Source: Pristiophorus japonicus (Eukaryota). Taken from it: a stretch of DNA of 64,000 bases. The position numbers and the translations under genes were made by a program. This document shows, piece by piece, positions 16,079 to 60,339 of this stretch (its first letter is position 1; each line of letters starts with the position of its first letter). The stretch is from assembly GCF_044704955.1 (NCBI RefSeq), contig NC_091985.1:201314001-201378000 (forward strand), read 5' to 3'. The notes beneath the pieces are model-generated. The model was not told the DNA's origin and searched no databases. It saw only the letters and a list, made by a program, of their open reading frames with translations.

Positions 16079-16522
<444 letters not shown>

Positions 16523-17786: not shown

Positions 17787-17839
17787 CGTCTTGTTTACTC
17801 AGGCACAGATTATGAAGCAAATTTTGCGTCCAGGCTAGC

Positions 17840-21204: not shown

Positions 21205-21408
21205 TCAGATTCTGGTATGTGAGTGTGTATTTTATTCTGTACCTGTCTATCTCTGGTATATGAGTGTGGCGTTTAATCTGTACCCGTCAGTTACTGGTAT
21301 ATGATTGTGGGGGTTATTCTGTACCTCTCCGTTTCAGTTATGTTATTGTGAGTTTTAATCGGTACCTGTCACTCTCTAGTATGTGAGTGTGGTATTTATT
21401 CTGTACCT

Positions 21409-28000: not shown

Positions 28001-29185
28001 GGTGTATTTGGACTTTCAGAAGGCTTTCGACAAGGTCCCACACAAGAGATTAATGTGCAAAGTTAAAGCACATGGGATTGGGGGTAGTATGCTGACATGG
28101 AATGAGAACTGATTGGCAGACAGGAAGCAAAGAGTAGGAGTAAATGGGTACTTTTCGGAATGGCAGGCAGTGACTAGTGGGGTACTGTGCTGGGGCCCCA
28201 GCTGTTTACACTGTACATTAATGATTTAGACGAGGGGATTAAATGTAGTATCTCCAAATTTGCGGATGACACTAAGTTGGGTGGCAGTGTGAGCTGCGAG
28301 GAAGATGCTATGAGGCTGCAGAGTGACTTGGATAGGTTAGATGAGTGGGCAAATGCATGGCAGATGAAGTATAATGTGGATAAATGTGAGGTTATCCACT
28401 TTGGTGGTAAAAACAGAGAGACAGACTATTATCTGAATGGTGACAGATTAGGAAAAGGGGAGGTGCAACGAGACCTGGGTGTCATGGTACATCAGTCATT
28501 GAAGGTTGGCATGCAGGTACAGCAGGTGGTTAAGAAAGCAAATGGCATGTTGGCCTTCATAGCGAGGGGATTTGAGTACAGGGGCAGGGACATGTTACTA
28601 CAGTTGTACAGGGCCTTGGTGAGGCCACACCTGGTGTATTGTGTACAGTTTTAGTATCCTAACTTGAGGAAGGACATTCTTGCTATTGAGGGAGTGCAGC
28701 GAAGGTTCACCAAACTGATTCCCGGGATGGCAGAACTGACATATGAAGAAAGGCTGGACCGACTAGGTATTCACTGGAATTTAGAAGAATGAGAGGGGAT
28801 CTCAAAGAAACATATAAAATTCTGACAGGATTGGACAGATTAGATGCAGGAAGAATGTTTCTGATGTTGGGGAAGTGCAGAACCAGGGGTCACAGTCTCA
28901 GGATAAGGGGTAAGGCATTTAGGACCGAGAAGAGGAGAACTTCTTCACTCAGAATTGTGAACCTGTGGAATTCTATACCACAGAAAGTTGTTGAGGCCAG
29001 TTCGTTAGATATATTCAAAAGGGAGTTAGATGTGGCCCTTACGGCTAAAGGGATCAAGGGGTACGGAGAGAAAGCAGAAATGGGGTACTGAAGTTGCATG
29101 ATCAGACTTGATCATATTGAATGGTGGTGCAGGCTCGAAAGACCGTATGGCCTACTCCTGCACCTATTTTCTATGTTTCTATGTT
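25030..29185 (+). mobile_element. Composite CR1: one copy (25030-26676) joined to a second subfamily copy starting at 26677
   Basis: RT C-terminal LVRPHL fused directly to endonuclease GEGIKQEIRG; second RT domain follows; single (TTTCTATG) tail at ~29170-29185. Confidence 0.9.
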
Positions 29186-29559
29186 ACGGACCTCACTGCA
29201 GTACAGCGGCACTCAGATTTTCCACACCAGGTATGTAGCATGGTTTTATAGAAAGTTATCAGCATCCAGACACAATACAAATCCGGCACTGGTTCATGAA
29301 TGGGATCACCCGATTGATACAGTCGAGATTTATAACTTCCTCTCCCATAGGTCTACCTGTAAAATTCTGAATCACTTTCTGGATTGTAACTACAGGTACC
29401 TGGGCTGTACCACAATTGTTCTCAGTCTATTAGAACCAAGTTAAGGGCCTGTGCAGTCAACAGAATGTATCTCAGGGAGCGACAATGTATCTCTCGATCA
29501 CCTTCAACACGGTTCTGGAGAACTCAACGCACCGAAACAAAATTACCGAATTTGAAATG

Positions 29560-30090: not shown

Positions 30091-30315
30091 GGGTGCCGGG
30101 AAGGAGCAGGCAAGTATTTCAATGCTGGAGCGTGAAGTCTGGAGGCAGATCTGGAAGCTCAGAGGCCACTGTCTCTGCTCAACCTGTCACTCTGATTCTG
30201 GTTCCTCCTTGCCTCTCTCACACTCGCCTTCCTCAACCAGGTCCGGGCTGGCTTCATAAACACATCTGGATGGCGAGAGTTTATCATTCAATTTATGTTC
30301 CTGTGAAGAATTATG

Positions 30316-30627
30316 ATGTCTGGCCGAGGTAAAGGAGGCAAAGGACTGGGTAAAGGCGGAGCCAAACGCCACCGTAAAGTGCTCAGTGATAACATCCAGG
30401 ATATCACCAAACCTGCCATCTGCCACCTGGATCGCTGTGGCGGTGTCAAGTGGATCTCGGGCCTGATCTACGAGGAGACCCGCGGGGTGCTGAAGGTTTT
30501 CCTGGAGAATGTGATCAGGGATGTGGTCACCTATACTGAACACACCAAACGCAAAATGGTCACAGCCATGGATATGGTGTACGCTCTGAAGCGGCAGGGC
30601 CGCCCTCTCTATGGATTCGGCGGCTGA
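30316..30627 (+). pseudogene. Divergent H4 copy with open frame, probable pseudogene
   Basis: 12 substitutions versus H4 at 13376; promoter homologous to 13185-13320 but TATA decayed to CATAAA; no stem-loop downstream. Confidence 0.8.
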
Positions 30628-30686
30628 ACAACGAGATCCTGGGGCAGTTTGACTATTTTTCTGATCATTTTCTCACCAGATTGACA

Positions 30687-31460: not shown

Positions 31461-32989
31461 TCAATAAGATCACCTCACATTCTTCTAAACTCCAATGAAT
31501 ATAGGCCTAAACTGCTCAACCTTTCTTCATAACCCCCTCATCTCACGAATCAACCTCGTGAATCTTCTCTGAACTGCCTCCAATGCAGAGACCAAAACTG
31601 TATAAAGTACTCCAGGTGTGGTGTCACCAACACCCTGTACAGTTGTAGCAGGTCTTCCCTACTTTTGTAATCCATCCCCCTTGCAAAAGAGGCCAACATT
31701 CCATTTGCCTTCTTAATTACTTGCTGTACCTGCATGCTAACTTTTTGTGTTTCATGTACAAGGACCCGCAGATCCCTCTGTACTGCAGCATTTTCTAATC
31801 TTTCCCCATTTAAATAATTTGCTTTTATATTTTTCATACCAAAGTGGATAACCTCACATTTTCCCACATTATACTCTATTTCCCAAATTTTTGCTCAGTC
31901 ACTTAGCTTATCCATATCCCTTTGTAAATTCTTTGCATCTTCCTCACAAATTGCTTTTCCACCTATCTTTGTATCATCAGCAAATTAAACTACATTACTC
32001 TCGGTCCCTTCATCCAAGTCATTAATATAGATTGTAAATAGTTGAGTTCCCAGCACTGATCCCTGTGGCACCCCACTAGTTAGTTTGCCAACCTAAAAAT
32101 GACCTATTTATCCCAATTCTGTTTTCTGTTAGTTAGCCAATCCTCTATCCATGCCAATATATTACTCCCAATTCCGTGAGCTCTTATCTTGTGCAGTAAC
32201 CTTTTATGTGGCACCTTATCGAATGCCTTCTAGAAATCCAAATACATGACACCTACTGGTTCCCCTTTATCCACCCTGCTCATTACATCCTCAAAGAACA
32301 CCAATAAATTTGTCAAGCATGATTTCCCTTTCATAAAACCATGCTGACTCTGCTTGACTGTACCATGATCTTCTAAATGTCCTGCTGCTACTTCATCAAT
32401 AATGGACTCCAGCATTTTCCCAATGACTGATGTTCGGCTAACAGTTTCCTGCTTTCTGTCTCCCTCCTTTCTTAAATAGGGGAATTACATTTGCTGTTTA
32501 CCATTCAAAATCCAGGATCCAGGGATTTTTGGCAGATTACAACCAATGTAGCCGCCAACTCTGTAGCCACTTCTTTTAATACCATAGGATGCAGGCCATT
32601 AGGTCCAGGGGACTTGTCCATCTTGTCCCCTCCCCATAGCTCCTTGATTTTCCATTATTGGGATGCTTTTAGTGTCTTCTACAGTGAAGACCGATACAAA
32701 ATATTTGTTCAAATTCTCTGCCACTTCCGTTTTCCATTATTAATTACCCAGTCTCATCCTCTAAGGGACCAACTTAGCTACTCTCTTCCTTTTTATATAC
32801 CTATAGAATCTCTTACTGTCTCTTTTTATATTTCTTGCTAGTTTACTCTCAATCTATCTCCTTTCCCTTTTTTCTTTTTTAGTCGTCTTTTGCTCTTTTC
32901 TAAAAAGTTCCCAATCTTCTGGCCTTCCACTAATCTTCGCAACATTGTATGCTTTTGTTTTCAATTTGATGCCATCCATTACTTCTTAG
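31461..32989 (-). mobile_element. CR1 RT region (its 5' continuation is at 43935-44505 on +)
   Basis: QHGFMKGKSCLTNL, YLDF, GKCEVIHFG; junction CTAAGAA shared with 44499-44505. Confidence 0.85.
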
Positions 32990-34105
32990 AAACATAGAAA
33001 ATAGGTGCAGGAGTAGGCCATTCGGCCCTTCGAGCCTGCACCACCATTCGATAAGATCATGGCTGATCATTCACCTCAGTACCCCTTTCCTGCTTTCTCT
33101 CCATACCCCTTGATCCCTTTAGCCATAAGGGCCATATCTAACTCCCTCTTGAATATATCCAATGAAATGGCATCAACAACTCTCTGCGGTAGGGAATGCC
33201 ACAGGTTAACAACTCTCTGAGTGAAGAAGTTTCTCCTCATCTCAGTCCTAAATGGCTTACCCCTTATCCGTAGACTATGTCCCCTGGTCCTGGACTTCCC
33301 CAACATCGGGAACATTCTTCCTTCATCTAACCTGTCCAGTCCCATCAGATTTTTATATGTTTCTATGAGATCCCCTCTCATCCTTCGAAATTCCAGTGAA
33401 TACAAGCCCAGTCAATCCAGTCTCTCCTCATATGTCAGTCCAGCTATCCCGGGAATCAGTCTGGTTAATCTTCGCTGCACTCCCTCAATAGCAAGAACGT
33501 CCTTCCTCAGAATCGAAGACCAAAACTGAACACAATATTCCAGGTGAGGCCTCACTAAGGCCCTGTACAACTGCAGTAAGACCTCCCTGCTCCTATACTC
33601 AAATCCCCTAGCTATGAAGGCCAACATACCATTTGCCTTCTTCAGCACCTGCTGTACCTGCATGCCAACTTTCAATAACTGATGTTCCATGACATCCAGG
33701 TCTCGTTGCACCTCCCCTTTTCCTAATCTGCCACCATTCAGATAATATTCTGCCTTCGTGTTTTTGCCACCAAAGTGGATAACCTCACATTTATCCACAT
33801 TATACTGCATCTGCCATGTGTTTGCCCACTCACCTAACCTGTCCAAGTCACCCTGCAGCCTTTTAGCGTCCTCCTCACAGCTCACACTGCCACCCAGCTT
33901 AGTATCATCTGCAAACTTGGAGATATTACACTTAATTCCCTCATCCAAATCATTAATTTATACTGTAAATAGCTGGAGTCCCAGTACTGAGCCCTGCGGC
34001 ACCCCACTAGTCACTGCCTGCCATTCTGCAAAGGACCCATTTATCCCGACTCTGTGCTTCCTGTCTGCCAACCAGTTCTCTATCCACGTCAGTATATTAC
34101 CCCCA
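32990..34105 (-). mobile_element. CR1 3' portion (its 5' continuation is at 44506-44634 on +)
   Basis: ORFs 33412..33948 and 33076..33405; tail aaacatagaaaatagg. Confidence 0.92.
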
Positions 34106-34106
34106 G

Positions 34107-37100
34107 GTGGTCGCTGAGGCGTGAGTCCGGGGATCAGCAGAGGCCTACAAAAGGCCGCGAGAGGCAGCGGGAGTTCGTGGTCGCTGAGGCGCGAGTCCGG
34201 GGATCAGCAGAGGCCTACAAAGGGCCGCGAGAGGCAGCGGGAGTTCGTGGTCGCTGAGGCGTGAGTCCGGGGATCAGCAGAGGCCTACAAAAGGCGTGAC
34301 TTGTGCAGCTACAGGGAGAAGGCAAAAAAGAAGTAGAAAGAAACAGAAAGGTGACGTCACAGCCGAAGGGGTAAGTGATTGGCTGGTGATTGGTGAGTAG
34401 TTTTTCTTTTTTTTTTATATTAGTCAGTAACTTTTAACATTGTGTTGCCAATTCCAGTGTCCCTGACGACTACGTGTGCGGGAAGTGTATCCGCCTCGAG
34501 TTCCTGACGGTCCGCGTTGCGGAGTTGGAGCTGAGGGTGGATTCACTCTGGAGCATCCACGATGCTGAGAATGACGTGAGTAGCACGTGTAGCGAGTTGG
34601 TCTTACTGCAGGAGAATGGTCCACAGCCAGATAGGGAATGGAAAACCAGCAGGAAGAGTAGTGCAAGGAAGGTAGTGCAGAGGTCCCCTGTGGTCATCCC
34701 CCTGCAAAACAGATACACCGCTTTGAGTACTGTTGGGGGGGGATGACTCATCAGGGGAGGGCAGCAGCAGCCAAGTTCATGGCACCGTGGGTGGCTCTGC
34801 TGCACAGGAGGGCAGGAAAAAGAGTGGGAGAGCGATAGTGATAGGGGATTCAATGGTGAGGGGAATAGATAGGCGTTTCTGCGGCCGCAACCGAGACTCC
34901 AGGATGGTATGTTGCCTCCCTGGTGCAAGGGTCAAGGATGTCTCGGAGCGGGTGCAGGACATTCTGAAAAGGGAGGGAGAACAGCCAGTTGTCGTGGTGC
35001 ACATTGGTACCAACGACATAGGTAAAAAAAGGGATGAGGCCCTACGAAACGAATTTAAGGAGCTAGGAGCTAAATTAAAAAGTAGGACCTCAAAAGTAGT
35101 AATCTCGGGATTGCTACCAGTGCCACGTGCCAGTCAGAGTAGGAATCGCAGGATAGCGCAGATGAATACGTGGCTTGAGCAGTGGTGCAGCAGGGAGGGA
35201 TTCAAATTCCTGGGGCATTGGAACCGGTTCTGGGGGAGGTGGGACCAGTACAAACCAGACGGTCTGCACCTGGGCAGGACCGGAACCAATGTCCTAGGGG
35301 AAGTGTTTGCGAGTGCTGTTGGGGAGGAGTTAAACTAATATGGCAGGGGGATGGGAATCAATGCAGGGAGACAGAGGGAGACAAAAAGGAGGCAAAAGCA
35401 AAAGACAGAAAGGAGATAAGGAAAAGTGGAGGGCAGAGAAACCCAAGGCAAAGAACAAAAAGGACCACTGTACAGCAAAATTCTAAAAGGACAAAGGGTG
35501 TTAAAAAAACAAACCTGAAGGCTTTGTGTCTTAATGCAAGGAGTATCCGCAATAAGGTGGATGAATTAACTGTGCAAATAGATGTTAACAAATATGATGT
35601 GATTGGAATTACGGACACGTGGCTCCAGGATGATCAGGGCTGGGAACTCAACATCCAGGGGTATTCAACATTCAGGAAGGATAGAATAAAAGGAAAAGGA
35701 GGTGGGGTAGCATTGCTGGTTCAAGAGGAGATTAATGCAATAGTTAGGAAAGACATTAGCTTGGATGATGTGGAATCTATATGGGTAGAGCTGCAGAACA
35801 CCAAAGGGCAAAAAACGTTAGTGGGAGTTGTGTACAGACCTCCAAACAGTAGTAGTGATGTTGGGGAGGGCATCAAACAGGAAATCAGGGGTGCATGCAA
35901 TAAAGGTGCAGCAGTTATAATGGGTGACTTTAATATGCACATAGATTGGGCTAGCCAAACTGGAAGCAATACGGTGGAGGAGGATTTCCTGGAGTGCATA
36001 AGAGATGGTTTTCTAGACCAATATGTCGAGGAACCAACTAGGGGGGAGGCCATCTTAGACTGGGTGCTGTGTAATGAGAGAGGATTAATTAGCAAGCTCA
36101 TTGTGCGAGGCCCCTTGGGGAAGAGTGACCATAATATGGTGGAATTCTGCATTAGGATGGAGAATGAAACAGTTAATTCAGAGACCATGGTCCAGAACTT
36201 AAAGAAGGGTAAATTTGAAGGTATGAGGCGTGAATTGTATAGGATAGATTGGCGAATGATACTTAAGGGGTTGACTGTGGATGGGCAATGGCAGACATTT
36301 AGAGACCGCATGGATGAACGACAACAATTGTACATTCCTGTCTGGCGTAAAAATAAAAAAGGGAAGGTGGCTCAACCGTGGCTATCTAGGGAAATCAGGG
36401 ATATTATTAAAGCCAAGGAAGTGGCATACAAATTGGCCAGAAATAGCAGCGAACCCGGGGACTGGGAGAAATTTAGAACTCAGCAGAGGAGGACAAAGGG
36501 TTTGATTAGGGCAGGGAAAATGGAGTACGAGAAGAAGCTTGCAGGAAACATTAAGGCGGATTGCAAAAGTTTCTATAGGTATGTAAGGAGAAAAAGGTTA
36601 GTAAAGACAAATGTAGGTCCCCTGCAGTCAGAATCAGGGGAAGTCATAACGGGGAACAAAGAAATGGCAGACCAATTGAACAAGTACTTTGGTTCGGTAT
36701 TCACTAAGGAGGACACAAACAACCTTCCGGATACAAAAGAGGTCAGAGGGTCTAGTAAGGAGGAGGAACTGAGGGAAATCTTTCTTAATCGGGAAATTGT
36801 GTTGGGGAAATTGATGGGATTGAAGGCCGATAAATCCCCAGGGCCTAATGGACTGCATCCCAGAGTACTTAAGGAGGTGGCCTTGGAAATAGCGGATGCA
36901 TTGACAGTCATTTTCCAACATTCCATTGACTCTGGATCAGTTCCTATCGAGTGGAGGGTAGCCAATGTAACCCCACTTTTTAAAAAAGGAGGGAGAGAAA
37001 ACAGGGAATTATAGACCGGTCAGCCAGACCTCAGTAGTGGGTAAAATGATGGAATCAATTATTAAGGATGTCATAGCAGCGCATTTGGAAAATGGTGACA

Positions 37101-38415
37101 TGACAGGTCCAAGTCAGCATGGATTTGTGAAAGGGAAATCATGCTTGACAAATCTTCTGGCATTTTTTGAGGATGTTTCCAGTAAAGTGGACAACAGAGA
37201 ACCAGTTGATGTGGTATATTTGGACTTTCAGAAGGCTTTCGACAAGGTCCCACACAAGAGATTAATGTGCAAAGTTAAAGCATATGGGATTGGGGGCAGT
37301 GTGCTGACGTGGATTGAGAACTGGTTGTCAGACAGGAAGCAAAGAGTAGGAGTAAATGGGTACTTTTCGGAATGGCAGGCAGTGACTAGTGGGGTACCGC
37401 AAGGTTCTGTGCTGGGGCCCCAGCTGTTTACACTGTACATTAATGATTTAGACGAGGGGATTAAATGTAGTATCTCCAAATTTGCGGATGACACTAAGTT
37501 GGGTGGCAGTGTGAGCTGCGAGGAGGATGCTATGAGGCTGCAGAGTGACTTGGATAGGTTAGGTGAGTGGGCAAATGCATGGCAGATGAAGTATAATGTG
37601 GATAAATGTGAGGTTATCCACTTTGGTGGTAAAAACAGAGAGACAGACTATTATCTGAATGGTGACAGATTAGGAAAAGGGGAGGTGCAACGAGACCTGG
37701 GTGTCATGGTACATCAGTCATTTAAGGTTGGCATGCAGGTACAGCAGGCGGTTAAGAAAGCAAATGGCATGTTGGCCTTCATAGCGAGGGGATTTGAGTA
37801 CAGGGGCAGGTAGGTGTTACTACAGTTGCACAGGGCCTTGGTGAGGCCACACCTGGAGTATTGTGTACAGTTTTGGTCTCCTAACCTGAGGAATTACATT
37901 CTTGTTATTGAGGGAGTGCAGCGAAGGTTCACCAGACTGATTCCCGGGATGGCGGGACTGACCTATCAAGAAAGACTAAATCAACTGGGCTTGTATTCAC
38001 TGGAGTTCAGAAGAATGAGAGGGGACCTCATAGAAACGTTTAAAATTCTGACGGGTTTAGACAGGTTGGATGCAGGAAGAATGTTCCCAATGTTGGGGAA
38101 GTCCAGAACCAGGGGTCACAGTCTAAGGATAAGGGGTAAGCCATTTAGGACCGAGATGAGGAGAAACTTCTTCACCCAGAGAGTGGTGAACCTGTGGAAT
38201 TCTCTAACACAGAAAGTAGTTGAGGCCAATTCACTAAATATATTCAAAAGGGAGTTAAGATGATATCCTTACTACTCGGGGGATCAAGGAGTATGGCGAG
38301 AAAGCAGGAATGGGGTACTGAATTTGCATGTTCAGCCATGAACTCATTGAATGGCGGTGCAGGCTAGAAGGGCCGAATGGCCTACTCCTGCACCTATTTT
38401 CGATGTTTCTATGTT
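34107..38415 (+). mobile_element. Near full-length young CR1: 70-bp tandem 5' UTR monomers, ORF1 (Zn finger, coiled coil, SGNH esterase), ORF2 (APE endonuclease-RT)
   Basis: ORF1 VCGKC..GDS..HIGTND..DGLH; ORF2 LNARS..GDFN..SDH..YLDFQKAFD..FADD; few frameshifts/stops; ORF1 start deleted. Confidence 0.95.
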
Positions 38416-38750
38416 AGGAGACTTCATGGGGTCCAGAGTCAGTGGTGAGGACTCCCAGGGTCACACCCTCCCGAATGTATACTACTGTGCCGCCACCGGT
38501 GGGACAGGACATACCCAGGGATGGTGATGGAGGAGTCTGGGACATTGGCTGAAAGGTATGATTCTGTGAGTATGACTATGTCAGGCTGTTGCTTGACTAG
38601 TCTGGGCCATCTCTTCCAATTTTGGCACAAGTCCTCAGATTTTGGTGAGAAAGACTGGGCTGGGTGTGCCTTTGTCGAGTCCGTAGCCGGTGCGGAGGTC
38701 GATGCCAGGTGCTCCGTCCGGTTTTATTCTTATTATTGTTTTTCGTAGCG
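38416..38750 (-). mobile_element. Endonuclease N-terminal fragment of a second LINE family (continues at 47119 on +)
   Basis: PDIVILTESYL..IPGY..SGPHEVS; junction AAGTCTCCT. Confidence 0.8.
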
Positions 38751-38764
38751 GTGGATCAATTGAT

Positions 38765-39180
38765 GAATCAATATGATCTTATTGAATGGTGGAGCAGGCT
38801 CGAGGGGCCAAATGGCCTACTCCTGCTTCTAATTCTTATGTACTTATTCCCTAGCCCAGATCCTGTCTCTATATTAAGAGCAATGATCCCAACACTGACC
38901 CTGGGGACACCACTGTTTACATCCCTCCATTCTGAAGAACATCCATTAACCACTACTCTCTGTTTTCTGCCCTTTACCAAACTTCCTCTCCACGCGACCC
39001 CAATCCCTTTAATACCTTTAATTTGATCAACAAGCCTCCTGTCCGGCACCTTATCAAACACCTTTTGACAATCCATCTACACAACATCCACTGCATTACC
39101 TTTCTCACTGCACTGTGTTATTTCCTGCAATAATCCCTGCTGTCTGTCCTGAATCAATCCATTTCACTACCAAATGTTGC
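38765..39180. mobile_element. CR1 tail (+) and old CR1 RT fragment (-)
   Basis: gatcttattgaatggtggagcaggctcgag tail; DCQKVFDKVP..RKQRVVVNG..SGVP. Confidence 0.65.
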
Positions 39181-39239
39181 AACGTTTACTTCTGTAGTTA
39201 GAATCCCCCGCGCAGGGATAAAGTGCTCTATCAATGACA

Positions 39240-39476
39240 CCAGGAGCCCAGACACGGGACCGGGCTGTGCTCTGAGCAGGCGCAGTGCCAGTGGTGGAGG
39301 TGGTCTGAGGCGGAAGAGACGTTCCGCGAGTCAGTAGGAGCTTGTGAGCTCAGCGGAGGAATTGGATCCCTGGGTGGGCTGGGCAGATTCATAAACACCT
39401 GGTGTCGGCCTCAGGCCTCGAATATGAGCCCGCAGGCTCCATGTTTGACCTGCGATGATAGACCCGACCACTCGGG
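39240..39476 (+). promoter_or_regulatory. Putative ZNF promoter and non-coding first exon
   Basis: CpG-rich, NRF1-like GAGCAGGCGCA 39274-39284; donor GG|GTAACT at 39477, acceptor ctccttttacag| at 39837. Confidence 0.5.
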
Positions 39477-40168
39477 GTAACTAGCTGAATTCTTGGGCAG
39501 GATCAGGGCGCCTGCGTGGCCATCTTGGTACAGGAGCAGAGGGTGGGTGGGGTTTAGGGTTCCAGTGACCAGGAGAGAAAATAATTTCCTTGCTTATTCT
39601 CAGTCTGCGCACTAGGGATATCGAACTGAACCCAACCAGAGAAGAGGGAGTGAGAAAATTGCAGATGGAGGAAAGAAATGATGGAGGTGGTGCGATGAGT
39701 TTGGATTTCAGCACAGGGTGGAGGGAGAGTGTGTGGGATGGGAATTTACAGCTTTGGGGAACTAGAGAGGAAAGAATGTTCCATAGAAACTAGGATTGTC
39801 TGTCCTCAGTGCTGACTTTTGTAAACTCCTTTTACAGAATATTAGAAAAGGAGGATTTACAGACGGGAAACTCGAATCAATCACAGTCACTCGATACACC
39901 TGTATATCATCGGCCTTTGAATGTGGAAGGAGAAACATTTGTCTGTTCTGTCTGTGAGAAAAGATATTAAACATTAGTGTGACTGGTAAATCACCGAGAC
40001 ACACACACCCGAGTGAGAGTGTTCCAGTGCACTGACTGTGGAAAGAGCTTTAACCAGTTACACAGCCTGAAAAAACATCGCACCATTCACAGAGGGGAGA
40101 AATATTGTGTATGTGGACGAAGCTTCAATTGATCATCCAACCTGGAGAGACACAAGGACACCCGCACC

Positions 40169-40675
40169 ATGGAGAAACCGTGGGAATGTGGAGACTGTGG
40201 GAAGGGATTCAATTGCCCCTCTGCGCTGGAAACTCATCGACGGCATCACAACGGAGAGAGGCCATTCACCTGCCCCGTGTGTGGGAAGGGATTCACTCGA
40301 TCATTTGGCCTGCTGACACACCAACACATTCACACTGGGGAGAGGCCATTCATCTGCTCTGAATGTGGGAAGGGTTTCACTCGATCATCCCACCTGCTGA
40401 CACACCAACGCATTCATACTGGGGAGAAGCCGTTCATCTGCTCTGAGTGTGGGAAGGCTTTCACTCGATCATCTTACCTGCTAGCACACCAGCGAGTTCA
40501 CACTGGGGAGAGGCTATTCACCTGCTCCGAGTGTGAGAAGCATTTCACTCGATCATCCAACCTGCTGAGACACCAGCGAGTTCACACTGGGGAGAGGCCA
40601 TTCACCTGCTCTGAGTGTGGGAAGGGATTCACTCAGTCATCCAACCTGCTGACACACCAGCGAGTTCACAAGTGA
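40169..40675 (+). CDS. C2H2 zinc-finger protein, six tandem Kruppel-type fingers, no KRAB/SCAN domain visible
   Basis: Six CxxC-x12-HxxxH fingers with TGE(R/K)PF linkers; ACCATGG Kozak context; three disrupted fingers upstream (39938-40168). Confidence 0.8.
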
Positions 40676-40791
40676 CTGCAGGGGTTGGACTCTGCTGTTA
40701 TTGTTGCCGTTAATCACATCCAGGACTGAAACATGTTGCCGCTGGTGTAATTAATCCCTATATCTGGGCTGGAGTTTAATTTTCTGGATAT

Positions 40792-42045
40792 CATTGAATC
40801 ATAGAATGGTCACAGCACAGTAGGAGGCCTTTTGGACCATCGAACCCATGCCGGCTCTCTGCAAGAGCACTTCAGCTAGTCATTAGAACATAAGAAATAG
40901 GAGCAGGAGTAGGCCACACCACCCCTCGAGTCTGCTCCACCATTCAATAAGATCATGGCTGGTCTGATCATGGACTCAGCTCCACTTCCCTGCCCACTCC
41001 CCATAACCCTTTATCGTTTAAGAAACTGTCTATTTCTGTCTTAAATTTATTCAATGTCCCAGCTTCCACATCTCTCTGAGGCAGCGAAGTCCACAGATTT
41101 ACAACCCTCTGAGAGAAGAAATTTCTCCTCATCTCTGTTTTAAATGGGCGGCCTCTAGTTCTAGTCTCCCGCATCAGTGGAAACATCCTCTCTGCATCCA
41201 CCTTGTCAAGCCCCCTCATATATGTTTTGATAAGATCACGTCTCATTCTTCTGAATTCCAATGAGTAGAGACCCAACCTACTCAACCTTTCCTCATAAGT
41301 CAACCCCCTCATCTCCGGAATCAACCTAGTAAAACTTCTCTGAACTGCCTCCAAAGTACCCACAGGTCCTGCTGTATTGCAGCACTTTGCAATCTTTCTC
41401 CATTTAAATAATAACTTGCTCTTGGATTTTTTTCTACCAAAGTGCATGACCTCAGACTTTCCAACATTACACTCCATCTGCCAAATTTTTGCCCACTCAC
41501 TTAGCCTGTCGATTCCTTTTGCAAATGTTTTGTGTCCTCCTCACACATTGCTTTTCCTCTCATCTTTGTATCATCAGCAAACTTGGCTACATTACACTCA
41601 GTCCCTTCTTCCAAGTCGTTAATATAGATTGTAAATAGTCCCAATCCCCGTCCTTTCCCCGTGACCCTGCAAATGTTTTATTTCATGTACTTATCAATTC
41701 CCTTTTTGAAAGCCACAATTGAATCTGCCTCCACCAGCCTTTCAGGCCATGCATTCCAGATCCTAACCACTCGGTGCTTAAAGAAAAGTTTTTTCTCATG
41801 TCGCCTTTGGTTCTTTTGCCAATCACCTTGAATCTGTGTCCTCTGGTTCTCAACCCTTCCGCCAATGGGAATATTTTCTCTCTACTCTGTCCAGACCCTT
41901 CATGATTTTAGAGCACCTCTATCAAATCTCCTCTCAACCTTCTCTGTTCTAAGAAGAACAACCCCAGCTTCACCAGTCTATCCATGTAACTGAAGTCCCT
42001 CATCCCTGGAATCATTCGTGTAAATCTTTTCTGCACCCTCTGTCA
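40792..42045 (-). mobile_element. Older CR1-like tail (40792-40882, 41641-42045) interrupted by a CR1 fragment (40885-41640)
   Basis: Two tail types; RTRGHRFKVIGKR and LEFRRMRRDLIKTY motifs. Confidence 0.8.
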
Positions 42046-42171
42046 AACAACTGTCAAATAAATCAGCTTTGTTTCCTACATACAGTGAGTCGATTCCTTG
42101 ATTTCTCCAAGAGGAGACTAATTGATGTCCTGTTACCGACTGTTCCATTTTTGAGCCTTTTCACGGCTTCT

Positions 42172-42285
42172 GTTTTAGTGATGTTGGTTGAGGGATAAAT
42201 GTTAGCCAGGACACCGGAGATCTCTCTTTTCTTCGAAATAATGTAATGGAATCTTTAACGCCGACTTGAGAGGTCAGATGGTTCT
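42172..42285 (-). mobile_element. DeuSINE-like central domain fragment
   Basis: gttggttgagggataaatgttagccaggacaccgg...cttcgaaata resembles the Deu-domain. Confidence 0.5.
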
Positions 42286-42294
42286 GATTCTTTT

Positions 42295-43925
42295 TTTTAT
42301 TCGTTCACGGGATGTGGGCGTTGCTGGTAAGGCCAGCATTTATTGTCCATCCATAACTGCCCTTGAGAAGATGGGGGGGAGCCATCTTCTTGAACTGCTG
42401 CAGTGCATGTGGTGAAGGTACTCCCACAGTACTGTTAGGGAGGGAGTTCCAGGATTTTGACCCAGCGATAATGAAGGAATGGCGATATGCTTCCAAATCA
42501 GGATGGTGTGTGACTTGGAAGGAAACGTGGAGGTGGTGGTGTTCCCATGCGCCTGCTGCCCTTGTCCTTCTAGTTGGTAGAGGTCGCGGGTTTGGGAGGT
42601 GCTGCTGAAGAAGCCTTGGCGAGTTGATGCAGTGTATCTTGTACATGGTAAACACTACAGCCACGGTACATCGATGATGGAGGGAGTGGATGTTTAAGGT
42701 GGTGGATGGGTGCCAATAAAGCAGGCTGCTTTGTCATGGATGTAGTCAAGCTTCTTGAGTGTTGTCGCAGTTGCATTCATCCAAGCAAGTGGAGAGTATT
42801 CCATCACACTCCTGACTTGTGCCTTGTAGATGGTGGAAAGGCTCTGGGGAGTCAGGAGGTGAGACACTCACCATAAAATACCTAGCCTCTGACTTGCTCT
42901 TGTTGCCACAGTATTTATGTGGCTGTTCCAGTTAAGTTTCTGGTCAATGGTAACCCCAAGGATGTTGATGGTAGGGGATTCGGTTATGGTAATGCCATTG
43001 AATGTTATGGGGTGGTGGATAGTCATTGCCTGGCACTTGTGGCGTGAATGTTACTTGCCACTTATCAGCCCAAGCCTGAATGTTGTCCAGATCTTGCTGT
43101 ACGCAGGCATGGACTGCTCCATTATCTGAGAAGTTGCGAATGGAACATAACACTGTGCAGTCATCAGCGAACTTCCCCACTTCTGACCTTATAATGGAAG
43201 GAAGGTCATTGATGAAGCAACTGAAGATGGTTGAGCCTAGGACACTGCCCTGAGGAACTCCTACAACGATGTCCTATGGCTGTGATGATTGACCTCCAAC
43301 TACCACAACTATCTTCTTTTGTGCTAGGTATGACTCCAGCCAGCGTAGAGTTTTCCCCCAGATTCCCATTGACTTCAGTTTTACTACAGCTCCTTGATGC
43401 TGCCCTGATGTCGAGGGCAGTCACTCTCACTTTGCCTCTGGAATTCAGCTCTTTTGATCATGTTTGGACCAAGGATGTGATGAGGTCTGGAGCCGAGTGG
43501 TCCTGGCGGAACCCAAACTGGGTATCGGTGAGCAGGTTATTGGTGAGTAAGTGCCGCTTGATACTACTGTTGGTGACAACTTCCATCACTTTGCGAATGA
43601 TTGAGAATAGACTGATGGGGCAGTAATTGACCAGATTGGATTTGTCCTGCTTTTTGTGGCAGTTTTCCACATTGTCGCATCGATGCCAGTGTTGTAACTG
43701 TACTCGAACAGCTTGGCTAGAGGTGTGGCTAGTTCTGGAGCACAAGTCTTCAGCACAACAGCCGGTGTATTGTCGGAACCCATAGCCTTTGCTGTATCCA
43801 ATGCATTCAGCTGTTTTTGATATCACGTGGAGTGAATCGAATTGGCTGAAGACTGGCTTCCTTAGGAGGAGGCCGATATGGATCATCCTCTCGGCACATC
43901 TGGCTGAAGATGGTTGTAAACTCCA
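42295..43925 (-). mobile_element. Second-family non-LTR retrotransposon (CR1/L2 group), RT to 3' end
   Basis: QFGFRQDHSAPDL, ALDI, FADDCTV, WADKWQVTF; A-rich tail at ~42290-42300. Confidence 0.8.
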
Positions 43926-43934
43926 GCCTTTTCT

Positions 43935-44634
43935 TCTCAGAAGATCAAGATGTAGAACCAGTTTGTGTCAAGATAAGAAATAATAAGGGAAAGAAATCAC
44001 TGGTAGGAGTAGTCTATAGGTCCTCTAACAGTAGCTACACTGCAGGACAGCATATAAATCAACAACACATGGAGGTTTGTAAGAAATACTGCAATAATCA
44101 TGGGCGATTTTAATCTTTTTCATTGGACAAATCAAATTGGCAAAGGTAGCCTTAAGGAAGAGTTCATAGAGTGTATTCGGGATGTTCTTAGAACAATACG
44201 ATGTGGAGCCAACCAGGGAGCAGACTATTTTAGATCTGGTAATGTGCAATTAATGATCTCATAGTAAAGGATCCTCTTGGGAAGAGTGATCATAACATGG
44301 TATAATTTCAAATTCAGTTTGAGGCTGAGAAACTTGGATCTCGTACTCGTGCCCTGAACTTAAATAAAGGCAATTACAAAGGAAGGGTAAGATGGTAGAT
44401 AAGCAGTGACAGACATTTAAGGAGATATTTTATAACTCACAGCAAAGATATATTCCAGTGAGAAAGAAAGACTCTTAAGATGAACCAGCCATGGCTAACT
44501 AAGAATTTTTTGAGGATGTAAGTGGTAGAGTGGACAAGGGAGAACCAGTGGATGTGGTGTATTTGGACTTTCAAAAGGCTTTTGACAAGGTCCCACACAA
44601 GAGATTGGTGTGCAAAATTAAAGCACATAGTATT
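43935..44634 (+). mobile_element. Two CR1 5' portions displaced by inversion
   Basis: Endonuclease segment to PWLTK (43935-44505), then EFFEDV..CKIKAH (44506-44634). Confidence 0.85.
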
Positions 44635-47123
44635 ACATAGAAACATAGAAAATAGGTGCAGGAGTAGGCCATTCAGCCCTTCTAGCCTGCACCGCCATTC
44701 AATGAGTTCATGGCTGAACATGCAACTTCAGTACCCCATTCCTGCTTTCTCGCCATACCCCTTGATCCCCCGAGTAGTAAGGACTTCATCTAACTCCCTT
44801 TTGAATATATTTAGTGAATTGGCCTCAACTACTTTCTGTGGTAGAGAATTCCACAGGTTCACCACTCTCTGGGTGAAGAAGTTTCTCCTCATCTCGGTCC
44901 TAAATGGCTTACCCCTTATCCTTAGACTGTGACCCCTGGTTCTGGACTTCCCCAACATTGGTAACATTCTTCCTGCATCTAACCTGTCTAAACCCGTCAG
45001 AATTTTAAACGTTTCTATGAGGTCCCCTCTCATTCTTCTGAACTCCAGTGAATACAATCCCAGTTGATCCAGTCTTTCTTGATACGTCAGTCCCACCATG
45101 CCGGGAATCAGTCTGGTGAATCTTCGCTGCACTCCCTCAATAGCAAGAACGTCCTTCCTCAAGTTAGGAGACCAAAACTGTACACAATACTCCAGGTGTG
45201 GCCTCACCAAGGCCCTGTACAACTGTAGCAACACCTCCCTGTCCCTGTACTCAAATCCCCTCGCTATGAAGGCCAACACGCCATTTGCTTTCTTAACCAC
45301 CTGCTGTACCTGCATGCTAACCTTCAATGACAGATGTACCATGACACCCAGGTCTCGTTGCACCTCCCCTTTTCCTAATCTGTCACCATTCAGATAATAG
45401 TCTGTCTCTCTGTTTTTACCACCAAAGTGGATAACCTCACATTTATCCACATTATACTTCATCTGCCATTCATTTGCCCACTCACCTAACCTATCCAAGT
45501 CACTCTGCAGCCTCATAGCATCCTCCTCGCAGCTCACACTGCCACCCAACTTAGTGTCATCCGCAAATTTGGAGATACTACATTTAATCCCCTCGTCTAA
45601 ATCATTAATGTACAGTGTAAACAGCTGGGGCCCCAGCACAGAACCTTGCGGTACCCCACTAGTCACTGCCTGCCATTCTGAAAAGTACCCATTTACTCCT
45701 ACTCTTTGCTTCCTGTCTGACAACCAGTTCTCAATCCATTTCAGCACACTACCCCCAATCCCATGTGCTTTAACTTTGCACATTAATCTCTTGTGTGGGA
45801 CCTTGTCGAAAGCCTTCTGAAAGTCCAAATACACCACATCAACTGGTTCTCCCTTGTCCACTCGACTGGAAACATCCTCAAAAAATTCCAGAAGATTTGT
45901 CAAGCATGATTTCCCTTTCACAAATCCATGCTGACTTGGACCTATAATGTCACCATTTTCCAAATGCGCTGCTATGACATCCTTAATAATTGATTCCATC
46001 ATTTTACCCACTACTGAGGTCAGGCTGACCGGTCTATAATTCCCTGTTTTCTCTCTCCCTCCTTTTTTAAAAAGTGGCGTTACATTGGCTACCCTCCTCT
46101 CGATAGGAACTGATCCAGAGTCAATGGAATGTTGGAAAATGACTGTCAATGCATTCGCTATTTCCAAGGCCACCTCCTTAAGTACTCTGGGATGCAGTCC
46201 ATCAGGCCCTGGGGATTTATCGGCCTTCAATCCATCAATTTCCCCAACACAATTTCCCGACTAATAAGGATTTCCCTCAGTTCCTCCTCCTTACTAGACC
46301 CTCTGACCCCTTTTCTATCCGGAAGGTTGTTTGTGTCCTCTTTAGTGAATAACGAACCAAAGTACTTGTTCAATTGGTCTGCCATTTCTTTGTTCCCAGT
46401 TATGACTTCCCCTGATTCTGATTGCAGGGGACCTACATTTGTCTTTACTAACCTTTTTCTCTTTACATATCTATGGAAACTTATGCAATCCGTCTTAATG
46501 TTCCCTGCAAGCTTCTTCTCGTACTCTTTTTTCCCTGACCTAATCAAACCCTTTGTCCTCCTCTGCTGAGTTCTAAATTTCTCCCAGTCCCCGGGCTCGC
46601 TGCTATTTCTGGGCAATTTGTATGCCACTTCCTTGGCTTTAATACTATCCCTGATTTCCCTTGATAGCCACGGTTGAGCCACCTTCCCTTTTTTATTTTT
46701 ACGGCAGACAGGAATGTACAATTGTTGTAGTTCATCCATGCGGTCTCTAAATGTCTGCCATTGCCCATCCACAGTCAACCCCTTAAGTATAATTCGCCAA
46801 TCTATCCTAGCCAATTCACGCCTCATACCTTCAAAGTTACCCTTCTTTAAGTTCTGGACCATGGTCTCTGAATTAACTGTTTCATTCTCCATCCTAATGC
46901 AGAATTCCACCATATTATGGTCATTCTTCCCCAAGGGGTCTTGCACAACGAGATTGCGAATTAATCCTCTCTCATTACACAACACCCAGTCTAAGATGGC
47001 TTCCCGCCTAGTTGGTTCCTCGACATATTGGTCTGGAAAACCATCCCTTATGCACTCCAGGAAATCCTCCTCTACCGTATTGCTTCCAGTTTGGCTAGCC
47101 CAATCTTTGTGCATATTAAAGTC
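44635..47123 (-). mobile_element. Young CR1, 5'-truncated, 500-aa open RT region
   Basis: ORFs 44728..46230 and 46227..47150; highly similar to 35925-38415 in inverted orientation. Confidence 0.95.
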
Positions 47124-47409
47124 TCCTGGCTCAAGGTCAAGCATGGGCAAGGAAACCTCCTGCTGATGACCACCTACCGCCCTCCTTCAGCTGACGAATC
47201 AGTACTCCTCCATGTTGAACACTTGGAAGAAGCACTGAGAGTAGCAAGGTGCACAGAATGTACTCTGGGTGGGGGACTTCAATGTCCATCAAGACTGGCT
47301 CGGTAGCACCACTACTAATCGATCTGGCAAAGTCCCGAAGGACATAACTGTCAGACTGGGCCTGCAGCAGGTGGTGAGAGAACCAACGCGAGGGGAAAAA
47401 CCTACTTGC
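47119..47409 (+). mobile_element. Second-family LINE endonuclease fragment
   Basis: VSWLKVKHGQGNLLLMTTYRPP..GDFNVH..EPTRG. Confidence 0.8.
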
Positions 47410-47750
47410 GCCCATCCCTTCGGAAAGGGTGTGAGAGTGCGATCAGCGGTAAGACGACAAAGGGCATGAGTCAGCCAAGCAGCTGGACTTCGGAAAGGGC
47501 GCGAGAGTGGGAGCAGCGGTAAGCCTACACAGGGCGTGAGTCAGCTGAGCAGACAGCCGAAACAGCACCAAGTAACCTGGTAGGATAAGAAGTAAAAAGA
47601 TTCAAAATGTGATGTCACAGGAAAGCGGGGAAGTAATTGGTTGGTCAGTTTCTCTCTTTTCTTGGGCATTGGTTTAAATTAAGAGCTGGGATTAAAAATC
47701 TAACGTGAAAAATTAATTAAATACATTAGAGATGGCAGGGCAAGCGATGT

Positions 47751-49532
47751 AGAAACACAGAAAATAGGTGCAGGAGTAGGCCATCCGGTCCTTCCAGCCT
47801 GCACCACCATTCAATAAGATCATCGCTGATTATTTTCAGTACCCCGTTCCTGCTTTCTCTCCATACCCCTTGATCCCTTGAGATGCAAGGGCCATATCTA
47901 ACTCCCTCTTGAATATATCCAATGAACTGGCATCAACAACTCTCTGCGGTAAGGAATTCCATAGGTTAACAACTCACTGAGTGAAGAAGTTCCTCCTCAT
48001 CTCAGTCCTAAATGGCTTACCCCTTATCCTTAAGACTGTGACCCCTGGTTCTGGACTTCCCCAACATCGGGAACATTCTTCCTGCATCTAACCTGTCCAG
48101 TCCCGTCAGAATTTTATATGTTTCTATGAGATCCCCTCTCATGCTTCTAAACTCCAGTGAATACAGGCCCAGTCGATCCAGTCCCTCCTCATATGTCTGT
48201 TCTGCCATCCCAGGAATCAGTCTGGTGAACCTTCGCTGCACTCCCTCAATCGCAAGAATGTCCTTCCTCAGATTAGGAGACCAAAACTGAACATAATATT
48301 CCAGGGGAGGCCTCACCAAGTCCCTGTACAACTGCAGTAAGACTTCCCTGCTCCTATACTCAAATCCCCTAGCTATGAAGGCCAACATACCATTTGCCTT
48401 CTTCACCGCCCGCTGTACCTGCATGCCAACTTTCAATGACTGATGTATCATGACACCCAGGTCTCGCTGCACCTCCCCTTTTCCTAATCTGCCGCCATTC
48501 AGATAATATTCTGCCTTTGTGTTTTTGCCCCCAAAGTGGATAACCTCACATTTATCCACATTATACTGCATCTGCCATATATTTGCCCACTCGCCTAACC
48601 TGTCCAAATCACCCTGCAGCCTCTTAGCGTCCTCTTCACAGCTCACACCGCCATCCAGTTTAGTGTCATCGGCAAACTTGGAGATATTACACTCAATTCC
48701 ATCATCCAAATCATTAATATACATTGTAAAGAGCTGGGGTCCCAGCACTGAGCCCTGCGGCACTCCACTAGTCACTGCCTGCCATTCTGAAAAAGACCTG
48801 TTAATCTCGACTCTCTGCTTCCTGTCTGCCAACCAGTTCTCTATCCACATCAGAACATTACCCCCAATACCATGTGCTTTGATTTTTCACACCAATCTCT
48901 TGTGTGGGACCTTGTCAAAAGCCTTTTGAAAGTCCAAATACACCACATCCACTGGTTCTACCCTGTCCACTCTACTAGTTACATCCTCAAAAAATTCCAG
49001 AAGATTTGTCAAGCATGATTTCCCTTCATTAATTCATGCTGACTTGGACCAATCCTATCACTGCTTTCCAAATGTGCTGCTATTTCATCCTTAATGATTG
49101 ATTCCAACATTTTCCCCACTACTGATGTCAGGCTAACTGGTCTATAATTACCCGTTTTCTCTCTTCCTCCTTTTTTAAAAAGTGGTGTTACATTAGCTAC
49201 CCTCCAGTCCATAGGAACTGATCCAGAGTCGATAGACTGTTGGAAAATAATCACCAATGCATCCACTATTTCTAGGGCCACTTCATTAAGTACTCTAGGA
49301 TGCAGACTATCAGGCCCCGGGGATTTATCGTCCTTCAATCCCATCAATTTCTCGAACACAATTTCCCGCTTAATTAGGATATCCTTCAGTTCCTCCTTCT
49401 CACTAGACCTTCGGACCCCTAGTACATCCAGAAGGTTATTTGTGTCTTCCTGTGTGAAGACAGAACCAAAGTACTTGTTCAATTGGTCTGCCATTTCTTT
49501 GTTCCCCATTATAAATTCACCCGAATCTGACT
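47751..49532 (-). mobile_element. CR1, 5'-truncated, inserted in ORF1 of host CR1
   Basis: ORFs 48017..48850 and 49009..49671. Confidence 0.92.
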
Positions 49533-51389
49533 GTGTTACTGCTGCTGCAGGTGGGAGCTGGTTGACCCCATTGAGGTCCACGGCAACCACATCTGCAGTA
49601 AGTGTTGGTTTCTCGAGGAACTTCAGCTCCGCGTTGATGAGCTGGAGTCCGAGCTGCAGACACTGCGACACATCAGGGAGGGGGAGAGTTACCTGGACGC
49701 TGTGTTCCAGGAGGCAATCACACCCCTTAGATTAATTAATTCAAATTTGGTCCATGGTTAGGAACAGGAGGGTGTGACTACGAGCAAGGCAGCTGTGGGG
49801 ACCCAGGAGGTAGTGATGGAGGAGCTTCAGCTCTTGCAATTATCCAACAGGTACGAGATTCGTGCTCCCTGCTTGGACGAGGGCAGGGACTGCAGGGAGG
49901 ATGAGCAAACTGACCACAGCGCCGTGGTACAGGAGGACATTCAAGTGGGGGGAGTAAAAAGAAATGTTGCAGTGATAGGAAAGAGTATAGTTTCGGAGAT
50001 AGATACTGTTCTCTGCAGCCGAGAGCGTGAGTCCCGAAGGCTGTGATGCCTGCGAAGTGCATGGTTCAGGACATCGCCCTTGGGCTGGAGAGGAACTTGG
50101 AGTGGGAGGGGGAAGATCCAGTTGTCGTGGGCCACGTAGGTACTAATGACATAGGTAGAACAAAGAAAGAGGTTCTGCTGAGAGAGTTTAAAAAGCAGAA
50201 CCACGAAGGCAATAATCTCTGGATTACTACCTGAGCCACGTGCAAATGTGCATCGGGTAAATAAGATCAGAGAGATGAACACGTGGCTCAAAGGCTGGTG
50301 TGGGAGAAATGGGTTTCGATTCATGGGGCACTGGCACCAGTACCGGGGCAAGAGGGAGCTGTTCCGTTGGGATGGGCTTCACTTGAACCAGGCTGGTGCT
50401 AATGTCCTGGCGAAGCAAATAACTAGGGCTGTAAAGAGGGCTTTAAACTAAATAGGTCGGGGGGGGGGAGCGGTGGATGGGGGGGGGGAGGGTTCAGGTG
50501 AGAGGAAATTTAAAAAGTCAAAGAGCAAGGAGAAGGCAATAGAGCAGGGTAGCACTGTGGGAAATGAGAATCAGACTGTGACAGGAAAAGACAGAATGTA
50601 TAAAAATAAGAGTGTAACAGAAAGTAGGGTCAAAGCAGGGAAAAATGGTAAAAAGTCAAAATTAAAAGTTCTTTATCTGAATGCACGCAGCATTCGTAAC
50701 AAGATAGATGAGTTGACGGCACAAATAGATACAAATGGGTATGATCTGATAGCCATTACAGAGACGTGGTTGCAAGATGACCAAGGCTGGGAACTAAATA
50801 TTCAGGGGTATTTAACAATTCAGAAGGATAGACAGAAAGGAAAAGGTCAGGTAGTTCTGTTAATAAACGATGAGATCAGTGCAGTGGTGAGAAATGATTT
50901 GGGCTCAGAAGATCAAGATGTAGAATCAATTTGGGTATAGATAAGAAATAATAAGGGGAAGAAGTCACTGGTGGGCGTAGTCTATAGGCCCCCTAACAGT
51001 AGCTGCACTGTTGGATGGAGTATAAATCAAGAAACAATGGAGGCTTGTAAGAAAGGTACGGCAATAATCACGGGCGATTTTAAGCTTCATATTGATTAGA
51101 CAAATCAAATTGGCCAAGGTAGACTTGAGGAAGAGTTTATAAGAGTGTATCTGGGATGGTCTCCTTGAACAGTACGTTGCAGAACCAACCAGGGAGCAGG
51201 CTATCTTAGATCTGGTATTGTGTAATGAGACAAGATTAATAAATGATCTCATAGTAAAGGATCCTCAAGGAAAATGTGAACATAACATGGTTGAATTTCA
51301 AATTTAGTTGGAGAGTGAGAAAGTCAGTTCTCAAACCAGTGTCCTGATTCTAAATAAAGGCGACTGCAAAGCTATGAAAGCAGAACTAG

Positions 51390-60327: not shown

Positions 60328-60339
60328 GAAGTTTCAGTC

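Follow-up and report, generated by a model that had tools for sequence, protein, structure and literature searches.

A 6.2-kb segment probably inverted between two oppositely oriented CR1 copies, read from the split halves of older LINEs

In the 64-kb stretch of DNA analysed here (the window), the segment at 38416–44634 is inverted between two CR1 copies of opposite orientation, probably through a non-allelic homologous crossover within the 2.5 kb that the copies share. The orientation can be read from three older LINE copies (C, D and E), each of which is split with its halves on opposite strands. A first-pass annotation of this DNA had claimed that one flip of 38416–44634 restores all three, and reverse-complementing the segment in silico does make them colinear (3/3), with a 9-bp duplication in E, a 1-bp overlap in C and a 7-bp duplication in D. 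The pieces concerned are:

38416–44634: minimal inverted segment, 6219 bp, from the in-silico flip
38416–38745, minus: left half of element E, an endonuclease-region piece of a second LINE family, with the 9-bp duplication at its end; the boundary at 38745 is approximate
47119–47410, plus: right half of element E, beginning with the 9-bp duplication; its right boundary is approximate
44503–44634, plus: 5′ piece of CR1 copy C, from alignment and the in-silico flip
32987–34105, minus: 3′ piece of copy C with its tail, from alignment and the in-silico flip
43936–44505, plus: 5′ piece of the older CR1 copy D, ending in the 7-bp duplication
31461–32989, minus: 3′ piece of copy D, which lacks a tail and stops at 31461

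Rejoined junctions

The 9-mer at the junction of element E, AAGTCTCCT, occurs once per strand in the window, at 38416–38424 (minus) and 47119–47127 (plus), which are the two sites predicted for the duplication. In the assembled order the left half of E meets a stop directly after HEVS, and in the rejoined element the reading frame is open through the junction (GPHEVSWLKVKH). Three of the 274 proteins tried match the rejoined E in endonuclease domains across the junction (best E 2.8e-4), and a fourth match begins merely 2 residues ahead of it. The halves of copy C, running to 44634 (plus) and from 34105 (minus), overlap by 1 bp when placed on each of the four intact paralogues, and rejoined C aligns end to end with another CR1 copy of the window (G) at 91.8% over 1252 bp; the near base-exact join described earlier is thus borne out. 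The duplication of copy D, CTAAGAA, lies at 44499–44505 (plus) and 32983–32989 (minus), and rejoined D aligns through the junction to the copy at 52025–53681 at 75%, in support of the D junction as first drawn. Because the 7-mer has nine occurrences on both strands of the window, CTAAGAA by itself is weaker evidence.

The flanking CR1 copies

The inverted segment is bounded by two CR1 copies:

34107–38415, plus: copy A, near full length, the left arm of the inverted pair
44635–47123, minus: copy B, 5′-truncated, the right arm; its 5′ end is a 5-bp microhomology with the target

Copy A consists of a 70-bp 5′ tandem repeat, a GDSL-esterase ORF1, a broken ORF2 with endonuclease and reverse transcriptase (RT), and an 8-bp microsatellite tail. 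Its domain matches include PF13472 (E 4e-14), PF03372 (E 2e-12) and PF00078 (E 4e-34), the first of which, Lipase_GDSL_2 (E 4.3e-14), lies at 34727–35335; an esterase domain is carried by the ORF1 of CR1 elements. The endonuclease and RT of ORF2 match PF03372, PF14529 and PF00078, all above curated cut-offs. The last 95 bases of the copies are predicted to fold into a 3′ hairpin (-34.2 and -29.7 kcal/mol, computed without a shuffle control). Assignment to CR1 is by similarity: the RT is about 43–57% identical to bird and turtle proteins and 65–83% identical to named ray, skate and shark proteins, and among the matches listed in the protein searches there was no conspecific CR1 protein above 88% identity. 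The copies share with the CR1 clade an ORF2 that encodes endonuclease and RT, a 3′ hairpin and a microsatellite tail of 8-bp units, whereas the tail unit here, TTTCTATG, differs from the avian ATTCTRTG and both copies are broken (PMC8665684, PMC4316615).

Copies A (plus) and B (minus) are 96.2% identical over 2494 bp (35923–38414 versus 47126–44635), with three gap openings of 1–2 bp each; the copies stay colinear, without an extra deletion or insertion. The earlier description of the flanks as highly similar CR1 copies therefore holds for this stretch, to which the homology is limited, and not for the whole of 34107–38415. Calling the copies young is likewise correct in a relative sense, but each has about 2% of private, neutral-looking changes and a broken ORF2. 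Private events are similar in number (36 in A and 42 in B, counted up to position 37900), and 21 of 74 private changes are synonymous, against 21% expected at random, so that these changes look like post-insertion decay.

The surroundings of the two copies are exchanged. The 9-bp duplication adjoins A at its tail and B at its 5′ end, and the halves of C adjoin A at its 5′ end and B at its tail; thus target duplications in one case and target halves in the other have changed partners. Copy A has no real target duplication (0–1 bp). Copy B is an independent insertion, because it has its own 9-bp target duplication and 5′ microhomology, which rule out that it is a duplicate of A.

Extent of the inversion and the zinc-finger ORF

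Exchange at any point of the shared A–B stretch gives identical junctions (3/3 points simulated). Because any such point restores them, the inverted length is 6.2 kb at minimum and 11.2 kb at maximum, and the size first given, 6.2 kb, stands as a minimum but not as a fixed length. The segment contains one open reading frame of interest:

40169–40675, plus: C2H2 zinc-finger ORF of 168 aa with six fingers, from ORF and domain search

Upstream of it come decayed fingers interrupted by three stops and, at 39837/39838, a site resembling a splice acceptor, and the ORF is best described as a putative gene. Because of the rejoined junctions, the zinc-finger segment was formerly on the minus strand relative to the flanks, as had been proposed. 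No functional effect of the flip is evident, the ORF and about 1.7 kb upstream having been shifted as a single block.

Proposed course of events

Swapping of target duplications between copies has been described as a signature of ectopic recombination (PMC2775673). Since target duplications are exchanged here and the copies are oppositely oriented, ectopic (non-allelic) homologous recombination is the best fit for the flip. That two inverted CR1 copies served as its substrate, as the first-pass annotation held, follows from the rejoined junctions; recombination as the mechanism is the probable reading of them. In this course of events, C would have inserted into D, making the 7-bp duplication. 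One CR1 would then have inserted into C on the plus strand with a 0–1 bp overlap, and the other into element E on the minus strand with the 9-bp duplication, after which both copies would have decayed by about 2% each. The zinc-finger segment would have been on the minus strand up to this point. A crossover between the copies would then swap their 3′ parts and turn the enclosed DNA round, leaving each tail against the original target of the other copy. We infer that the 3′ part of the present copy A comes from the original copy B. The first-pass annotation further allowed that the inversion may be polymorphic or recurrent.

A near-identical tract shared by three copies

Divergence between A and B drops sharply within one tract:

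37370–37715, plus: near-identical tract in A (RT core), with one difference from B in 346 bp, common to copy F at 28158–28493
45333–45678, minus: the same tract in B, from alignment to A

For 346 bp with a single A–B difference the scan p is 0.002, and a wholly identical run of 208 bp lies inside the tract. The crossover may have taken place in or near it. The tract is not accepted as a crossover mark specific to A and B, since the third copy, F, which lies 9 kb off, carries it as well. Private events within it number 0 in A, 1 in B and 3 in F, against 7.6, 8.7 and 12.1 expected. No comparable drop is seen in the older copies G, H and C, with 9–19 private changes over the 324 aligned bases concerned, and G–C divergence is 7.8% in the tract and 8.3% outside it, which together rule out both a cold spot of mutation and conservation of the RT core. 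A separately amplified satellite is disfavoured in that contig depth, a weak test, has no spike at 45333–45678. Shared non-synonymous changes affect 10 of 115 codons in the tract and 27 of 306 outside (p = 1.0, with low power). The p values for the longest runs are 0.041 (A–B), 0.004 (A–F) and 0.016 (B–F), none of which survives correction singly among the 20 pairs tested.

Aligning A and B to place the crossover had been suggested at the outset. It yielded the 2494-bp alignment but did not locate the crossover point, which was sought through asymmetry of private changes and through sharing with F: private changes beside the tract are symmetric on either side (31 versus 28, and 14 versus 14) and give no sign that A and B are chimeric, and the useful sites common to F are a handful and ambiguous.

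A broader interpretation, to which we give a low probability, is that the RT core of the A/B subfamily is a recombination focus, and that a shared 350 bp of A, B and F was homogenised well after the copies had inserted, in the event, possibly a single multi-invasion reaction, that flipped the zinc-finger segment. If this were true, the flip, judged by the residual divergence of the tract (0–3 events per copy versus 8–12 expected), would be several-fold more recent than the insertions, the inversion might still segregate or toggle, and the locus would show in nature the three-copy footprint of a pathway that has been characterised in yeast.

Alternative explanations

A real inversion could also arise when replication switches template between the two copies, by fold-back or break-induced replication, rather than by crossover. 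LINE pairs in inverted orientation can give rise to hairpins and can promote template switching (PMC2603318), and the product would be identical at the sequence level, but the junctions here have no extra deletions or insertions. Such extras accompanied small Alu inversions in humans (4/7) and none of the LINE-1 inversions (0/8), the latter being read in that report as non-allelic homologous recombination (NAHR) (PMC9675761); template switching is rather unlikely for the present case. A related proposal is that both A and B were invaded by a broken end from F or some other member of the family, and that processing of the joint molecule recombined them and left the shared tract in all three (multi-invasion-induced rearrangement). 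The shortage of private events in A, B and F, set beside the absence of such a drop in G, H and C, speaks for it, and in yeast data the pathway can recombine LINE-like repeats and leave matched chimeric repeats (bioRxiv 10.1101/2023.03.15.532751). Against it, a decayed donor should bring shared changes in excess, of which the codon comparison, low as its power is, gives no sign; the run p values fail correction singly; and a series of ordinary gene conversions, or polishing towards the consensus of the family, would explain the tract without any link to the inversion. We regard this three-copy event as very unlikely. Still less probable is that the inversion was made at insertion, either by two staggered cuts 6.2 kb apart that each primed a CR1 and had their ends joined crosswise, or by a staggered-break inversion that captured a CR1 at each breakpoint. 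The junctions would be identical, A lacks a normal target duplication, and the comparable decay of A and B points to a similar age; yet two simultaneous insertions within 6 kb are required, and a single burst of a very abundant family would also give copies of similar age.

The segment might instead be un-inverted in the genome, with the assembler having switched between A and B at the near-identical tract. Such a switch could have happened in the 208-bp identical run, which lies in 346 bp with a single mismatch. Conversely, the 64 kb of the window contain no N despite their many repeats, the private events retained by each copy up to position 37900 indicate that the assembly tells the copies apart, and reads longer than 2.5 kb would presumably cross each repeat, so a mis-join is quite unlikely. 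Among the 24 sequencing runs listed, all of them as contigs, four contain at least half of the words of the query and come from one organism and sample (S1), possibly the source; in the other organisms the shares are 0.20–0.23 (three organisms) or 0.16–0.18 (three organisms), too small to serve as evidence. Contigs of four runs (X1, X19, X5 and X22) were placed on 38300–47745 at 90% likeness, where paralogues dominate. No joint linking 38416 to 47128 was present among the best 15 of 3,984 contig joints, an absence uninformative on orientation, and the longest aligned contig piece among those listed was under 200 bp. In run X1, 86–98% of contig depth at seven B sites has the letter of A, and summed contig depth is 3.7–18 million in the B bins versus 5,000–26,000 in bins 38930–39874. 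The CR1 family of A and B is very abundant.

Comparison with known inversions

Inversion between inverted LINE copies is a well-known event, and the mechanism proposed here is ordinary rather than new. In the human–chimpanzee comparison of Lee et al. (2008), LINE-1 pairs account for 21 of 49 retrotransposon recombination-mediated inversion (RRMI) loci; genic regions contain many of the loci, and ten are polymorphic (PMC2603318). Both those loci and the present one are bounded by same-family retrotransposons in opposite orientation; there the ancestral state was taken from genome comparison, whereas here it comes from three split nested elements in one sequence, the repeat is a CR1 and the host is probably a cartilaginous fish. 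Human LINE-1-mediated inversions have a median length of 5,487 bp, a median similarity of 97.1% and simple junctions in 8 of 8 cases (Balachandran et al., 2022; PMC9675761), which the 6.2-kb minimum, 96.2% identity and simple junctions found here resemble. Those inversions segregate, are supported by assembly or PCR and have located breakpoints, whereas the present case is known from one assembled sequence (PMC9675761). The Galileo inversion 2z3 of Drosophila buzzatii (Delprat et al., 2009) has the same opposite orientation and exchanged target-site duplications, but its element is a DNA transposon, the inverted chromosomal region is large, and both copies there were demonstrated to be chimeric (PMC2775673). 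We found no paper on the present locus or on a CR1-mediated inversion in cartilaginous fish, in a search mostly outside subscription journals; the supplements of PMC13320814 could hold such events.

The locus is a tidy example of how one genome can suffice to tell the ancestral orientation, provided that the flanking repeats lie nested in older elements. The same nested-element orientation test could be run genome-wide in species that lack close references. It may be of some use because, in a recent survey of over 600 vertebrates, less than 0.2% of the calls were inversions or duplications, both of which, as that survey reports, were excluded from its analyses (PMC13320814).

Other recombination among CR1 copies in the window

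Two recombination footprints besides the inversion occur within the 64-kb window. A tract of 147 bp is identical in copies G and P and includes four derived changes common to both, one of them a 1-bp insertion (0/4000 shuffles), which suggests from the sequence that neighbouring CR1 copies of the window do recombine. The histone and zinc-finger neighbourhood looks recombination-active, and a likely deletion and two conversion-like tracts are found among CR1 copies within 30 kb.

A Likely Inversion Whose Reversal Rejoins Three Split Elements

The first-pass annotation described three elements as split, each with its halves on opposite strands. Together with the repeats that flank the minimal inverted segment (38416-44634) and the ORF inside it, they lie as follows:

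34107-38415 (+), CR1 copy A
44635-47123 (-), 5'-truncated CR1 copy B
38416-38745 (-) and 47119-47410 (+), halves of element E, a second-family LINE (junction 1)
44503-44634 (+) and 32987-34105 (-), halves of C, a CR1 (junction 2)
43936-44505 (+) and 31461-32989 (-), halves of D, an older CR1 hosting C (junction 3)
40169-40675 (+), zinc-finger ORF, 168 aa

That all three become colinear once 38416-44634 is flipped was borne out in silico, where a single flip mended E, C and D. At junction 1, the duplicated 9-mer has exactly one copy per strand, at 38416 (-) at the tail of A and at 47119 (+) at the 5' end of B. The left half of E meets an immediate stop as assembled; after the flip the frame is open through the join, and of 274 proteins tried, 3 align with it across the join by their endonuclease domains (best E 2.8e-4). 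The halves of C overlap by 1 bp in the coordinate systems of all four paralogues used, and once rejoined C is 91.8% identical to G, another CR1 copy, along 1252 bp. The halves of D have a 7-bp duplication in common, and rejoined D aligns through the join to a copy at 52025-53681. Junctions 2 and 3 are nested at the same breakpoint and are thus not fully independent, whereas junction 1 is the other insertion site. D ends at 31461, lacking about 370 bp up to a tail, and adjoins there a fragment of another, older LINE.

Copies A and B

By their domains and the structure of their 3' ends A and B are both CR1-like, and neither is intact. They are separate insertions, since B carries a 9-bp duplication of its own as well as 5 bp of microhomology at its 5' end. 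The high similarity first reported for them stands at 96.2% but is limited to 35923-38414 against 47126-44635, and the proposed length of 6.2 kb becomes a range: exchange simulated at three points between A and B restored an identical layout each time, and the inverted length is therefore 6.2 to 11.2 kb. Their private changes are even over codon positions (synonymous in 21 of 74, vs 21% expected at random) and are post-insertion decay, about 2% in each copy. At 7 sites of B (among 40 of 444 rows listed), the contigs of run X1 carry the letter of A at 86-98% of their depth, and the changes there are thus private to B.

Origin of the Inversion

Non-allelic crossover between A and B, as first proposed, is the probable origin. 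PMC2775673 applies three criteria to ectopic recombination: opposite orientation, exchanged target sites and chimerism. The A/B pair shows the first two; the third would need the parental copies, and private changes show no asymmetry along the pair. The size and similarity of the A/B inversion also support this reading, as they sit at the medians that PMC9675761 gives for inversions by LINE-1 in humans (5,487 bp, 97.1%). A replication template switch would leave the same product as the crossover and is unlikely. An assembly mis-join, somewhat less likely again, could draw on a 208-bp identical run between A and B and on an assembly method that is not known, but the assembly retains dozens of private changes per copy and is without gaps. 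Contigs of 4 of 24 runs (all contigs), aligned over 38300-47745, were dominated by paralogues, and orientation was not informed by the 15 of 3,984 joints or the 32 pieces listed. Quite improbable is a three-copy event in which a broken end of F, a further CR1 copy, or of another family member would invade A and B, a speculative reading based on a yeast preprint (bioRxiv 10.1101/2023.03.15.532751). Least probable is an inversion produced at insertion. Under crossover, template switch, three-copy event and inversion at insertion alike, the zinc-finger segment was formerly on the minus strand, as the first-pass annotation held; under a mis-join it would be there still.

The crossover reading agrees with retrotransposon recombination-mediated inversions, for which PMC2603318 gives 49 loci, 21 by LINE-1 and ten polymorphic; the A/B inversion works likewise, fits on every clearly resolved point, and looks like a real, ordinary LINE-flanked inversion, one that may vary among individuals or recur. 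Among the papers listed by literature searches, none treats the locus or a CR1-mediated inversion in a cartilaginous fish. TE-mediated ectopic recombination is described across taxa by a survey covering over 600 vertebrates, which set inversions aside (PMC13320814).

A Near-Identical Tract in A, B and F

Aligning A with B, suggested as a way to locate the crossover, yielded a candidate 346-bp tract in the RT core:

37370-37715, in A
45678-45333, in B
28158-28493, in F

Within it, the A/B alignment has a single difference in 346 sites, vs 90 in the other 2144; of 20,000 shuffles, 0.24% gave a span of this length with no more than one difference, and 4.1% an identical run of 208 bp. By its sequence the A/B tract looks like a conversion tract and is a candidate site for the exchange. 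The exchange point was not located, however, as F, 9 kb upstream, has the tract too (A, B and F are 4-8% apart outside it) and the private changes are symmetric. Private events in the tract, observed vs expected, number 0 vs 7.6 in A, 1 vs 8.7 in B and 3 vs 12.1 in F; because the tract was chosen on A vs B, the F figure is the independent test (Poisson P 0.002). The older copies G, H and C show no homogenisation there. Shared non-synonymous changes showed no excess in the tract (10 of 115 codons vs 27 of 306 outside), so its source may be a decayed neighbour, a near-consensus copy or a polishing effect.

Other Likely Recombination Footprints

G and P are neighbouring CR1 copies on the same strand that differ by 7% overall. 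They have 147 identical bases in common (47953-48099 and 51715-51861), where they share four derived changes, one of them an insertion of 1 bp, vs one in their remaining overlap. This run was reached by 0 of 4000 shuffles, the sole survivor of correction among 20 overlapping pairs, and judged by sequence is a local gene-conversion footprint. H (region 25031-29195) is cut at 26677 by inserted F and lacks a continuation beyond. F changes type at about 28663-28745, near the predicted start of H's missing part: on the A/B-type side it is 3% from A and B, on the other 11-14% from A, B, G and C, with H itself at 9-13%. Recombination of F with the remainder of H probably deleted about 560 bp. Both footprints support real ectopic exchange in the neighbourhood.

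An older, apparently full-length CR1 (47411-54053, +), interrupted by G, by P and by a fragment from the second LINE family, begins within E. No continuation of E is seen past the tail of this CR1, which may point to another deletion or rearrangement at that place.

Setting of the Locus

The 64-kb window is vertebrate DNA, dense in repeats and without any N, in which histone genes, numerous LINE fragments and the zinc-finger ORF lie. Other features are:

6180-10903, LTR retrotransposon whose LTRs of 269 bp match at 97.4%, with parts resembling protease, RT, RNase H and integrase (labelled by eye)
11672-17882 and 30187-30672, histone cluster, ORFs reading as H1, H2B, H3, H2A and H4 (labelled by eye)
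about 19850-20120 and 30130-30640, additional diverged histone copies
1014-1432, 21203-21408, 23063-24621, 55760-56587 and 59572-60328, tandem arrays (periods 41-46, 67 and 33 bp)

Six intact fingers in the zinc-finger ORF are preceded by decayed fingers with three stops; the ORF, a putative gene, belongs to a large family, and its highest identities among the named matches listed are to Hemitrygon (71%), Heterodontus (67%) and Cetorhinus (64%). The top identities of the CR1 RT among the named matches listed are 65-83% in rays, skates and sharks and about 43-57% in birds and turtles. From both sets of identities, a cartilaginous fish is the likely host. The LTR retrotransposon is inserted into a LINE fragment at 5774-6180 that looks RTE-like. 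Against a paralogue at 22250-22656, 5774-6029 matches the opposite strand and 6031-6180 the same strand, which may reflect a small inversion or a LINE 5' inversion. The 33-bp tandem array is 94% uniform, with open frames on both strands.
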